A DNA stretch of 64,000 bases from an uncultured Candidatus Babeliaceae bacterium (GCA_963704655.1 OY969927.1:160001-224000), one strand, 5' to 3'; shown: positions 27,705 to 30,087, counted from the first letter of the stretch. Translations and numbers: made by a program. The notes: a model not told the origin generated them from the letters alone.

Positions 27705-28469
27705 TTATCTATAGCGGCCCGCTAAGGCTTGTTGGCGTATCTCTTTTTCTTGTTTAATAAACTCATTTTTAATGCGCTTCATGCGATTACTTTCTAATTC
27801 CGAAGTATTATTAATCATATTGAGGTAAAAATCCGTAGCGCTGGTAAGAGGCTCTTCTGCTTTGCCCATGTATTTCTGGTAGATGGTTGCGCTTTCTTGT
27901 TTTTGTTGTGCAGATTTTTTGAGCTGGTCGATGAGATTTCTTGCCTCATTATAATCTACCTGACAGGGAACTGAAATTCCTTGATTCGTAAGTATTTTGC
28001 CGCTCAAGTAAGAAACAAGAAGCTGTAAGGCAAGTGTGTCTTTTATGGCCGGTGAGATTGTTACATCATCTAATTGTTTTTGAAGTTCTTGTTGAATAGT
28101 TATACCCTTTTTTAAAGCAGGGTTGTAAATTTCTTTTGCATCTTGCATATCATAATAATAGGAACCAACGGTTGCCAACCCCGCGCCGCCTGCTACTGCT
28201 CCTGCAAGAAAAGCTTTTCCTTGCGAACTTGGCGCAGTTTTTGCTGGGTGGTAAATATTTTGCTCATATTTAACATTTTGTCGTAAGGGCGCCGCTGTAG
28301 AAAATGCACGTTTTGGTGCAGGTCGTATAACACGCGGTGCGCTTGTTTGGCTCATGCGTTTTGCTCCGGTGCGTAAAGCACTTGCCGCTTCACCTGCCAT
28401 GGCGTGTATAAGCTGGCCCATAAAGACGATCGCCCCTAAAAAAATATTTTTTGAAAAATTGCTCTTCAT
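27705..28469 (-). CDS. Exported protein with signal peptide + mitochondrial-presequence-like segment + TM
   Basis: RBS-like gaggggg; ...IHA|MAGEAASALRTGAKRMS...KRAFST; hydrophobic AFLAGAVAGGAGLATVG. Confidence 0.75.
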   Translation of the reverse strand: MKSNFSKNIFLGAIVFMGQLIHAMAGEAASALRTGAKRMSQTSAPRVIRPAPKRAFSTAAPLRQNVKYEQNIYHPAKTAPSSQGKAFLAGAVAGGAGLATVGSYYYDMQDAKEIYNPALKKGITIQQELQKQLDDVTISPAIKDTLALQLLVSYLSGKILTNQGISVPCQVDYNEARNLIDQLKKSAQQKQESATIYQKYMGKAEEPLTSATDFYLNMINNTSELESNRMKRIKNEFIKQEKEIRQQALAGRYR

Positions 28470-28585
28470 AATACCTATTCCCCCCTCTTGGTATATTTTC
28501 TATTACGATTTAATCGTAGCATAGTGTGTCATGCGAACGCAAATTTAAAGGAGCTTTATTCTAAAACGTGCTTTTAATTACTCAA

Positions 28586-28676
28586 TCCTTCGATACATTT
28601 TGCTTGCGCAAAACACTCAGGATGCACGGTCTGGTCGTTAGCCGCTCGTGGTGAGCGTAGTCGAATCCATGCGGCC
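28586..28676 (+). repeat. Paired REP-like elements
   Basis: tccttcgatac...cactcaggatgcacgg followed by ccgctcgtggtgagcgtagtcgaatcca. Confidence 0.75.
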
Positions 28677-28706
28677 AATTTGATGTTTTTAAATCAAGCT
28701 TTGGTT

Positions 28707-29231
28707 TTACGATCTAGGGGTGCCTGGTAAACGAGATTTTGCGTTGTGCAATAAGTTACTTACTTCGAAATATAATTGCGCAGCTTTTAATTTTTCGGGT
28801 GAATTTTCAGCTTTTACCACCCAGGTATCTAGGATAGTGTTTGCAAAATATTCCAGGAGGTAAATATTATCTGGATGTTTACGTGCTATTTCTGCAATTT
28901 TTTCAAGTTGTGCGCTTGTTCTGTCTGCATAAGGATTTTCTGCAAGAATTCTTGCCCGTTCTGCTTGCGCGGTTTCAGCCGTTAACCGAGGTTGTACCGC
29001 TTTTGAAAAAGTGCGCTTGGTTGTGATGATTGTTGGCTGTCGTAATGTTTGCATGGTGGCGGGTCTTAATGCTGTTCGTGCTTGGGCTATGCGTATGGTG
29101 CCTGTTTGGCCAATACGAGTAAACATCGGCCGTACTGCGCGTGCAGTTTCGTTTATTATCATGCAATGCGTATGTTGCCCCACAAAGAGGGTTAAACCGA
29201 CAAGTACTATTTTTAAAGCTTTATTATTCAT
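28707..29231 (-). CDS. Exported protein with signal peptide + mitochondrial-presequence-like segment
   Basis: ...THC|MIINETARAVRPMFTR...KRTFS. Confidence 0.72.
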   Translation of the reverse strand: MNNKALKIVLVGLTLFVGQHTHCMIINETARAVRPMFTRIGQTGTIRIAQARTALRPATMQTLRQPTIITTKRTFSKAVQPRLTAETAQAERARILAENPYADRTSAQLEKIAEIARKHPDNIYLLEYFANTILDTWVVKAENSPEKLKAAQLYFEVSNLLHNAKSRLPGTPRS

Positions 29232-29262
29232 AGCACACCCACTTTTACTTTTTAAAACGCTT

Positions 29263-30087
29263 TTATCTTACCCTTCGCCCAAAATAGCCTTTAAAGTAGT
29301 AGTTATCCAGATTAAGAAAGGTTTTTGCAGCATCTGCCATCAGCTTAAGAAATTCCCTATATTCTTTTGAACTTCTGCTAAATTTTGGATTTACACTCAG
29401 AGTAGCATCAAAAAAATCGCCTAAATTTCTTAATGCTAGAACTTTTTCTTCCATTTCCTGATCGGTATAACTTGGAAGAGCTTTTGTTTTAGCAAGCATT
29501 TGGGCTGCTTCTTGCAGGGTAAGATGTGCCGCTTGAGGATATTTTGCCGATACTTTTGGCAGATTAATAGCTCGGGATAGTGCTGCGATGCGATCTTCTA
29601 ATGGCTCTTTATCGACTGGTTTATCTTTATATAAATCTATAATGTTGTTAATACTCTGATAGTTAGCAAGAGCTTTAGAAAGTTTCTCCCGTGCTTTCTC
29701 TAAGCCTTGAATATCATTTGGATTTTTTAGGGCCTCTGCTGCGATTTGTTCAGCCTCATGTGCAGGCATTAGTTGTGCTACACTTTCTGCAATAATTTGT
29801 TTAATTGCTGGCGAAGGTGTTGTTGAATAGTTTCGCACAGGAGCTGGGTATGCCATTCTGGCCATCGGTACAAGATTTTGTGTTGTTTTTGAATAATAGT
29901 TCAAGCTTTTTGTTGGAACTGTTGCTGCCGTCAAAAAGGCACGTCCAGTTGCTGCGCGCGCTTGGCCGCCAAAGCGTGTAACGACTGTACGGGCGGCACT
30001 TGCTGCTTCACTTGCCATGCTGTAAGAAAGCTGACCCATAAAGAGGGCTGAAGCTAAAAGTATAATTTTTAAAGATTTGTTTTTCAT
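29263..30087 (-). CDS. Exported protein with signal peptide + mitochondrial-presequence-like segment
   Basis: RBS ggggaga; ...SYS|MASEAASAARTVVTR...VRNYST. Confidence 0.75.
   Translation of the reverse strand: MKNKSLKIILLASALFMGQLSYSMASEAASAARTVVTRFGGQARAATGRAFLTAATVPTKSLNYYSKTTQNLVPMARMAYPAPVRNYSTTPSPAIKQIIAESVAQLMPAHEAEQIAAEALKNPNDIQGLEKAREKLSKALANYQSINNIIDLYKDKPVDKEPLEDRIAALSRAINLPKVSAKYPQAAHLTLQEAAQMLAKTKALPSYTDQEMEEKVLALRNLGDFFDATLSVNPKFSRSSKEYREFLKLMADAAKTFLNLDNYYFKGYFGRRVR

Follow-up and report, generated by a model that had tools for sequence, protein, structure and literature searches.

Genes and features of the locus

The stretch of DNA analyzed here (the window) comprises 64,000 nucleotides of the genome of an uncultured Candidatus Babeliaceae bacterium, a single contig of 1,298,077 bp with 38% GC (genome G000; window G000:C1:160001-224000). 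Between positions 27,705 and 30,087 it carries three co-oriented genes, hereafter A, B and C, each encoding a protein with a 23-residue signal peptide, a Met at position 24 and a basic, almost acid-free leader. This layout had been described in an initial annotation of the window, and the open reading frames (ORFs) and N-termini quoted there were all recovered. We regard the three proteins as candidates for fast-evolving, lineage-specific secreted effectors of an obligately host-dependent member of the Dependentiae, with a composite N-terminal address, in which the leader would be read as a mitochondrial presequence by the host, a tentative reading in which doubt slightly outweighs confidence. 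In the lists and motifs below, a slash stands for the proposed cut, and SD for Shine-Dalgarno.

27705-28469, minus strand: gene A, a 254-residue orphan with signal peptide 1-23, leader 24-56, Gly/Ala-rich hydrophobic segment 86-106 and a helical C-terminal part
28302-28400, minus strand: leader of gene A, residues 24-56 (33 residues), ending in KRAF/ST (R54); GC 52.4% vs 37.7% in the signal-peptide codons
28152-28214, minus strand: Gly/Ala-rich, marginally hydrophobic segment of gene A, residues 86-106, followed by YYY; AFLAGAVAGGAGLATVGSYYY
28470-28490, minus strand: SD-like run before the first ATG (ATG1) of gene A; GAGGGGGGA
28707-29231, minus strand: gene B, a 174-residue orphan with signal peptide 1-23 and leader 24-75
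29007-29162, minus strand: leader of gene B, residues 24-75 (52 residues), ending in KRTF/SK (R73); GC 48.1% vs 36.2% in the signal-peptide codons
29263-30087, minus strand: gene C, a 274-residue orphan with signal peptide 1-23, leader 24-87 and a helical C-terminal part
29827-30018, minus strand: leader of gene C, residues 24-87 (64 residues), ending in VRNY/ST (R85)
30019-30087, minus strand: signal peptide of gene C, its n-, h- and c-regions read from the ORF translation; MKNKSLKIILLASALFMGQLSYS
30088-30105, minus strand: SD-like run before ATG1 of gene C, GGGGAG

Gene B starts 31 nucleotides past the stop of gene C.

Signal peptides and start codons

The signal peptides of A, B and C are built from a 7-residue n-region with 2-3 Lys, a 10-residue h-region and a 6-residue polar c-region (G-Q-x-x-x-small), which in A read MKSNFSK, NIFLGAIVFM and GQLIHA, those of B and C being similar. 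Residues -3/-1 before Met24 are I/A in A, T/C in B and S/S in C, and a second possible cleavage site lies two residues downstream in A (A-M-A/G) and in C (S-M-A/S). A signal peptidase I (SPase I, Peptidase_S26) is encoded in the genome (118.5 bits, above the cut-off). No lipobox was found in the three proteins, A and C having no Cys and the H-T-H-C of B not qualifying as one.

The public gene calls have A beginning at Met17 (238 residues) and p217, another gene of the window with the same N-terminal layout (see below), at Met22, and both drop the signal peptide. Purine-rich SD-like runs, however, lie 5-12 nucleotides ahead of ATG1 in A and C, with a weaker one (GTGGGTG) in B, and none precedes Met24 in A, B or C. 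A perfect SD sequence (TAGGAGGT) likewise stands ahead of ATG1 of p217, with none ahead of Met22, and over the nine proteins of the class defined below such a run was present ahead of ATG1 in 9/9 and ahead of an internal Met in 0/9. These runs favor the upstream ATG1 over the internal starts of the public calls, and ATG1 was taken as the start. Codons 1-23 moreover differ synonymously between A and C (read by eye from the alignment), which indicates that the signal peptide is translated, and position 17 of gene B is Val (GTG). Judged by these codon-level features, the signal peptides of the three proteins are real and translated.

A signal-peptide heuristic was applied to the whole genome; it is permissive, 512 of 1271 ORFs (~40%) being flagged. 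Met occupied +1 of the first -3/-1 site in 43/512 of the flagged proteins (8.4%, vs 1.8% Met overall, p 3e-16), as a sharp peak of 43 at offset 0 vs 0-15 at neighboring offsets, which supports cleavage directly before Met. The same position was Met in 33/120 proteins (27.5%) of a same-family genome (G008:C1:1-381000) and in 5/123, not significant, in the parts of the congener G003 that were covered. This Met could have arisen where a signal peptide was placed in front of an older start codon, from the use of two starts, or because a mature protein beginning with Met is required in the host.

Composition and endings of the leaders

Over their first 40 residues, the leaders contain 6 Arg and 2 Lys in A, 6 Arg and no Lys in B, and 4 Arg and 1 Lys in C, with one Glu each. 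This single Glu lies at +4/+5 after Met24, and the sequences are then acid-free for 41, 57 and 73 residues in A, B and C, respectively (by eye). Taken together, the three leaders (152 residues) contain 12.5% Arg, 18.4% Ala, 14.5% Thr, no Asp and 2.0% Glu, with Arg dispersed every 5-8 residues and not clustered. The stretch rich in Arg, Ala, Thr and Ser that had been described, with one acidic residue and an R-x-[FY]-S ending, is indeed present, its length ranging from 33 to 64 residues. The composition that characterizes presequences (Arg, hydroxylated and small residues, almost no Asp/Glu, 10-80 residues) is found in A, B and C.

The motif (RAF/S, RTF/S and RNY/S) sits where the acid-free stretch ends. 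Gene C also has an internal GRAF/LT, which aligns with KRAF/ST of gene A (MAFFT), and thus has two such motifs. In the proteome, R.[FY]S occurs with a frequency of 2.5e-4 per residue. Mitochondrial processing peptidase (MPP) cuts with Arg at -2, and Icp55 then removes Y/L/F (PMC13672106). The initial annotation had related the leader endings to this rule, and the agreement stands: R.[FY][ST] was found 15-75 residues past the signal peptide in 5/9 proteins of the class, vs 18/503 other signal-peptide-like proteins (Fisher p 1.3e-5), the chance of the motif given an Arg-rich composition being about 0.07 per protein (estimate).

Codon usage is also distinctive. In gene C, the leader reaches 49.7% GC, compared with 31.9% for the codons of the signal peptide and 37.8% for the remainder of the gene; over the nine genes, leaders range over 44-58%, signal peptides over 27-38% and the remaining codons over 34-40%. 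Such GC-rich leader codons in an AT-biased genome point to selection for the composition of the leader. Over the 419 leader residues of the nine proteins, Arg amounts to 12.2% vs 3.7% in the proteome, Lys to 3.1% vs 6.7%, Asp to 0% vs 4.8%, Glu to 1.7% vs 5.6% and Ala to 16.2% vs 8.1%.

Orphan proteins with shared leaders

Gene C matched only itself among 1.84 billion representative proteins, and gene A, in a word-based outside search, only its own shorter public gene call. A search of the ESM Atlas with residues 24-254 of A gave no usable match, and among 40 relatives gene C found nothing but a weak match in one genome (G018, E 0.008). A Pfam scan of A, B and C returned no family above the cut-off. 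The AlphaFold2 model of C is all-helical and was too poor to be used, because its mean predicted local distance difference test (pLDDT) is 49. As judged from these searches, the three genes lack homologues and so belong to no known effector family. An origin from a host gene was also considered and is not supported, no eukaryotic or other homologue being found.

Within the array, similarity is concentrated at the N-terminus. In a 9-sequence database, the N-terminal parts of A and C are 40% identical over 84 residues (E 1e-10) and those of B and C 44% over 62 residues (E 6e-11), with E 1e-5 for A and B; the best pair of C-terminal pieces, from B and C, reaches 35% over 34 residues (E 0.057). 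Over residues 1-130 of C, identity with B is 35%. At the DNA level, the strings that had been quoted as homologous correspond, in reverse complement, to codons 24-31 of the two genes A and C; they align as had been described, and so do the sequences preceding these two genes. The suggestion that the cargo regions lack similarity can be retained in that their C-terminal parts are not significantly homologous, with the reservation that B and C keep a weak resemblance. The related idea of a leader acting as a module on unrelated cargos likewise applies within arrays, and not across the genome (see below).

A second array behaves in the same way. It consists of the tandem genes 1145804 and 1146653, located elsewhere in the genome and listed below, whose products are 72% identical over the first ~106 residues with no BLAST match between their C-terminal parts. 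Their DNA is identical at 46, 58 and 49 of 60 positions over nucleotides 31-210 and, from nucleotide 331, at 15-27 of 60 (25-45%), a contrast that is not attainable by protein selection alone and therefore points to copying or conversion of the leader. The pair can be described as a mosaic, its first ~330 nucleotides being up to 58/60 identical and the rest at background identity.

A nine-member class in the genome

The whole genome was screened for a 40-residue stretch after a signal-peptide-like start with a net charge of at least +4 and at most 1 acidic residue. Among the 512 signal-peptide-like proteins, 15 passed; 10 of these have at least 4 Arg and nine of the 10 are Arg-dominated. The class was chosen on charge only, and R:K ratios, circular when derived from an Arg-weighted selection, were left unused. 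When a stricter screen was extended to all positions of all proteins, such a stretch was found in 14 proteins, directly behind a signal-peptide-like start in 6/14. The class shows canonical n/h/c signal peptides with h-regions of 10-15 residues; of its nine members, A, B, C and p217 lie in the window. The others, together with p217, are as follows.

57418-59412, plus strand: p217, 664 residues, with signal peptide 1-21, Met22, Arg-rich leader 22-58 (...NRALY/SQ) and C-terminal domain 327-664
Residues 87-101 of p217, plus strand: Gly-rich segment; LYTGGAAATVGMAYY
G000:C1:692702-694240 and 694447-695790: J692 and J694, tandem J-domain (HPD) proteins with signal peptide and Arg-rich, acid-free leader
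G000 1145804-1147474: the tandem genes 1145804 and 1146653
G000 857492-859135: p857, 547 residues

The two J-domain proteins both match DnaJ (PF00226; 45.9 and 39.7 bits vs a cut-off of 27.8), both have the HPD motif, and both J-domains match solved J-domains. A J-domain needs Hsp70 and ATP, neither of which is expected in the periplasm; an exported J-domain would therefore act where Hsp70 exists, i.e., in the host. In J694 the motif QRGY/SQ lies a few residues ahead of the J-domain, where J692 has only the looser KRYL/TS (Leu). A homologue search with residues 125-512 of J692 returned only itself, and the 1146653 protein was present in 1/151 genomes, its own.

A Gly/Ala-rich segment followed by YY(Y) is common to A, p217, the 1145804/1146653 pair and one J-protein. 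The best 19-mers of these Gly-rich segments have Kyte-Doolittle means of 0.58-1.52, all below 1.6. One of the two J-proteins also has a C-terminal Gly-rich YF segment, and the Gly-rich YY(Y) segment recurs in one protein that has a signal peptide but no basic leader (G000 1207939-1208490). Separately from the class, a protein with a signal peptide and a long region of Gly/Arg (RGG-like) repeats is encoded at G000:C1:1172749-1173486, with a look-alike at G003:C2:28756-29559.

The p217 family across the order

The C-terminal domain of p217 (window positions 58396-59409, ~335 residues) belongs to a family found in 28/261 genomes of the order, with 8 matches in the congener G002, and is recognized by the invariant blocks ...NNQGYI.FFHGQ..., ...FPFGN..., ...YYVENK... 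and ...HC.MPLTPA...LNPESG.... It corresponds to no Pfam family, its AlphaFold2 model (pLDDT 38) is too poor for a fold search, and a metagenome scan with the domain alignment gave 381 pattern matches, of which 0 were confirmed.

Among the 39 ORFs with this domain that were read, 31 have an N-terminal hydrophobic segment and 8 do not. The next 40-mer has a net charge of at least +4 and at most 1 acidic residue in 10/31, from 8 genomes in 4 families; the remaining 21/31 have no basic leader, 3 of those 21 being borderline by eye. Net charge is bimodal in the family, and the domain starts at a median of residue 362 in leader-bearing proteins vs 156. The family leaders share no common sequence and are Lys-based in some genomes. 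An orthologue, P0004 (48% overall identity), keeps the signal peptide, the Arg-rich leader, the NRA[AL] motif and the Gly-rich segment, with Leu instead of Met after the signal peptide. The basic-leader property thus appears to be conserved across the order without conserved sequence, on a subset of paralogues, and its restriction to a subset of a paralogous family looks like differential addressing.

Surroundings of the array

The array lies within an island (26281-31162) of orphan ORFs with signal peptides, flanked by a RidA-family gene and by L31/prfA. Its other ORFs are the following.

26281-26856, plus strand: flanking ORF with a weak ankyrin hint
26868-27446, minus strand: flanking ORF
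30332-31162, plus strand: flanking ORF

When four DNA sequencing runs were compared with positions 27600-30300, the contigs were short, mostly identical and of partial cover, no base differences were listed, and nothing pointed to a habitat; no RNA data set was listed as carrying the sequence. In the congener G002 (G002:C33), the spot directly upstream of L31/prfA, occupied by the array in our genome, holds a 148-residue signal-peptide ORF (L014 11111-11557, minus strand). It reads '...SVNA/MASQS...', followed by an R/S/P-rich, acid-poor and clearly non-helical region, and has no homology to A, B and C by a hidden Markov model (HMM) of the leader.

Weighing the mitochondrial reading

The result for an amphipathic helix after removal of the signal peptide is mixed, the class as a whole exceeding composition-matched shuffles and A, B and C individually not. 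The set consisted of 20 leaders, 8 from this genome and 12 from relatives, some of them paralogous. At the helical angle of 100 degrees, 5 gave p<0.05 and 13 gave p<0.2 (Fisher combined p 4e-6), while the control at 160 degrees gave a combined p of 0.97.

Several observations weigh against a mitochondrial destination or against the scope first given to it. Taken singly, the amphipathicity of A, B and C is not significant vs composition-matched shuffles (p 0.10, 0.15 and 0.41), and other window sizes gave a similar outcome. The leaders are Leu-poor (6.0% vs 10.2% in the proteome, 0.59x), Pro-rich (6.9% vs 3.8%, 1.8x) and enriched in Gln, which would fit a generic disordered basic region too. 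The enrichment of the class is moderate, 10/512 proteins (at least 4 Arg, D+E at most 1) vs ~2 expected from composition; paralogy inflates all class counts and reduces the 10 to ~6 independent lineages. The same screen placed 0/120 signal-peptide-like proteins in the class over 381 kb of a same-family genome and 0/123 over 403 kb of a congener. Other genes occupy the syntenic spot upstream of L31/prfA in 4 congeners, where the island is not syntenic. Two class members, those of the 1145804-1147474 pair, have lipobox-like sites (VAAC/AVAC), and Lgt and LspA are encoded in the genome; their leaders may hang on a lipid anchor, and these proteins may be lipoproteins. In addition, type II secretion exports folded proteins, and mitochondrial import needs unfolding.

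Three features to which weight had been given also lose some of it. Met24 does not mark a presequence: Met after the cleavage site is common genome-wide and is therefore a trait of the secretome, not of these leaders. A leader HMM built from the first 48 residues recovered A, B and C and no other gene of the genome (next best E = 1) and gave no match in 1.1 Mb of relatives' DNA, so the leader is not a genome-wide homologous module. As for the transmembrane segment ascribed to gene A, a hydrophobic Gly/Ala-rich segment is present, with a best 19-mer Kyte-Doolittle mean of only 1.31 vs the usual 1.6, below every reference transmembrane peak of the genome's polytopic proteins.

The Tom20-binding pattern phi-x-x-phi-phi was not found in A, C and three other class members; B has one (VRPMF), and where present in the class the pattern is never above shuffles. 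This absence is not decisive, since Ala is partly tolerated as a substitute (PMC4585086). The same source indicates that presequence-like sequences readily arise from arbitrary sequence (PMC4585086), which also counsels caution.

Proposed route to the host mitochondrion

The genome encodes two secretins, two ATPases of the type II secretion system (T2SS) kind, Lgt, LspA and TLC ATP/ADP translocases. VirB4 was looked for in the genome and not found; type III components were not searched for. In Babela massiliensis, the T2SS is the sole secretion system reported, and ankyrin proteins with signal peptides are probably secreted into the amoeba cytoplasm (PMC4378268). Chromulinavorax destructans has signal peptides on 44% of its coding sequences, and the host mitochondrion is remodeled and wrapped around the parasite (PMC6561590).

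From a mechanistic point of view, the Sec signal peptide would carry the protein across the inner membrane and SPase I would cut at or next to Met24, the features being those seen above. Exit to the host cytoplasm could then follow the type II secretion/secretin route or vesicles, as suggested by the literature on the phylum. The exposed leader of 33-64 residues would be read by the host as a presequence, pass TOM/TIM23 and be cut at R-x-[FY]/[ST] by MPP and Icp55. More speculatively, soluble cargos (B, C and the J-domain proteins) may end in the matrix, where a J-domain could engage mitochondrial Hsp70, and cargos with a Gly/Ala-rich segment (A, p217) may arrest in the host inner membrane, this segment presumably lacking the hydrophobicity needed to halt translocation through the bacterial Sec channel. 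Genes of one tandem array would retain or copy the leader and differ in cargo. Processing by an MPP-like enzyme of the bacterium itself was also considered and dropped, such a maturase being unlikely because the M16 peptidase of the genome has no signal peptide.

A wider proposal can be formulated, which is possible and, in our view, doubtful. It supposes that Dependentiae have evolved a bipartite address made of a Sec signal, a presequence with an MPP/Icp55 site and an optional Gly-rich stop-transfer segment. This address would be defined by composition, retained on some paralogues throughout the order and spread by copying from one tandem gene to another; it would deliver J-domain co-chaperones and membrane proteins to host mitochondria, and would open a molecular view of the way in which these energy parasites remodel the organelle.

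Alternative explanations

The alternative that survives best, unlikely and still to be taken seriously, is that the leader is a composition-defined, basic and disordered region of secreted effectors with another host-directed role, such as Arg-rich membrane crossing in the manner of cell-penetrating peptides, sorting into the secretion route or vesicles, or binding of acidic lipids or nucleic acids, including nucleolar targeting. The leaders indeed contain much A, T, S, P, Q and G and little L, I and F; singly they show little amphipathicity, and most members lack the Tom20 pattern. The post-signal region of the G002 protein at the syntenic spot, R/S/P-rich and clearly non-helical, and the Lys-based basic leaders of AT-richer relatives would also suit such a role. 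The dispersion of Arg every 5-8 residues, unclustered, is by contrast less expected of it, as are the helical periodicity at class level with its negative 160 degree control, the R-x-[FY]-[ST] motif at the very end of the leader, and the choice of Arg over Lys at the cost of GC-rich codons.

Retention of the proteins in the bacterial envelope (periplasm or surface), with the basic leader as a linker or an envelope-binding segment, is distinctly improbable. About 40% of ORFs (512/1271, heuristic) are signal-peptide-like, so export alone says little, and this placement could accommodate the lipobox-like sites of two class members in a genome that encodes Lgt and LspA, as well as the Gly-rich YY(Y) segment on a signal-peptide protein lacking such a leader (G000 1207939-1208490). 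A periplasmic location would however make no sense of the J-domains carried by two class members, being an orphan and diversifying in tandem is what genes for host interaction typically show, and the basic leader is conserved on only a subset of the paralogous family.

It is very unlikely that the N-terminal segment is an uncleaved anchor, forming in A and p217 a hairpin with the Gly-rich segment and leaving the basic stretch as a cytoplasmic loop. A positive, acid-free stretch beside a hydrophobic segment is what the textbook positive-inside rule predicts, and four class members do have a second hydrophobic segment 60-80 residues downstream. This model nevertheless fails because the h-regions are short (only 10-15 residues, with polar c-regions and small residues at -3/-1), because n-regions with 2-3 Lys favor an N-in orientation, and because B, C, J692 and p857 have a basic leader without a second hydrophobic segment. 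The second segments are moreover under the hydrophobicity threshold of transmembrane segments, and in A, B and C the mature protein opens with 8-9 residues that carry no positive charge and include Glu, as in export-competent proteins.

Mimicry of a plastid transit peptide, in place of a mitochondrial presequence, is highly improbable. High Thr/Ser/Ala and Pro, low Leu and the weak amphipathicity of C would suit it, transit peptides being enriched in hydroxylated residues (PMC4585086), but 12% Arg and the R-x-[FY]-S ending suit mitochondrial processing better, and the hosts from which the phylum is known are protists with a heterotrophic way of life (PMC12172432). Finally, a true start at an internal Met (17, 22 or 24), or dual starts, giving a main product without a signal peptide before the leader, is extremely improbable: the public calls at Met17 and Met22 and the Met directly after the predicted cleavage site speak for it, and the SD-like runs placed before ATG1 and not before an internal Met in all nine members, Val at position 17 of B, the conservation of the 23 codons between paralogues at the protein level with synonymous changes, and the genome-wide Met peak exactly at +1 of -3/-1 sites speak against it.

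Significance and comparison with known systems

Dependentiae are widespread obligate parasites of protists which import host ATP. At least one member wraps itself in the host mitochondrion, and we know of no effector or mechanism for this in the phylum. The present work yields an explicit list of candidates, namely A, B and C, p217 and five proteins elsewhere, among them two exported J-domain proteins, plus a family with and without the leader. Should the mitochondrial reading be true, the Sec/type II route would be able to deliver presequence-bearing proteins to mitochondria. Should it be wrong, the class would still document a basic leader that is conserved and under selection in a phylum about which little is known.

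Map and EspF of enteropathogenic Escherichia coli and VopE of Vibrio cholerae are type III effectors with N-terminal mitochondrial targeting sequences. They are comparable to the present candidates in the kind of N-terminal address proposed for the latter, and differ by type III injection, by the lack of a Sec signal and by unrelated sequence. In complex plastids, nucleus-encoded proteins carry a signal peptide followed by a transit peptide, an acid-poor, hydroxylated/basic peptide which becomes active after cleavage of the signal, as proposed here; this is however a host-encoded system serving the host's own organelle, so that the likeness is an analogy only.

Babela massiliensis and Chromulinavorax destructans, of the same phylum, share the assumed Sec-type II route and many orphan secreted proteins, and Babela-specific DnaJ-domain proteins are mentioned (PMC4378268, PMC6561590). 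Unlike our candidates, theirs are not described, in the available text of these papers, as having an organelle-targeting leader behind the signal peptide (PMC4378268, PMC6561590). No literature was found that joins Dependentiae, Babelota or TM6 with mitochondrial targeting, presequence or TargetP; the supplements on Babela and Chromulinavorax might list such proteins.

The closest bacterial precedent is Ats-1 of Anaplasma phagocytophilum, a type IV effector with a cleavable mitochondrial presequence (PMC2824752). Like A, B and C, it has a basic, presequence-like N-terminal region, which in Ats-1 extends over ~55-60 residues, and Ats-1 is imported into host mitochondria and cleaved at a defined site. 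Its presequence lies at the true N-terminus and its delivery is by type IV secretion, whereas here a Sec signal comes first and no VirB4 was found in the genome. Import has been demonstrated for Ats-1 and is a proposal for the present leaders, which have no sequence relationship to it. The order of signals is better matched by effectors of fungi and oomycetes, in which a signal peptide is followed by a transit peptide or presequence, the basis of LOCALIZER (PMC5353544). There too, removal of the secretion signal comes first and exposes an N-terminus that mimics a targeting peptide for a host organelle, although the pathogens are eukaryotic, the route passes through the endoplasmic reticulum and the hosts are plants, as opposed to the bacterial Sec signal and the type II or vesicle exit proposed here. 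Bacterial effectors with a cleavable presequence, of which Ats-1 is the clearest, and the layout of a secretion signal followed by an organelle signal in eukaryotic pathogens are thus already known; the array described here, if correctly interpreted, would be a bacterial case of this latter design, known from eukaryotic pathogens and complex plastids.

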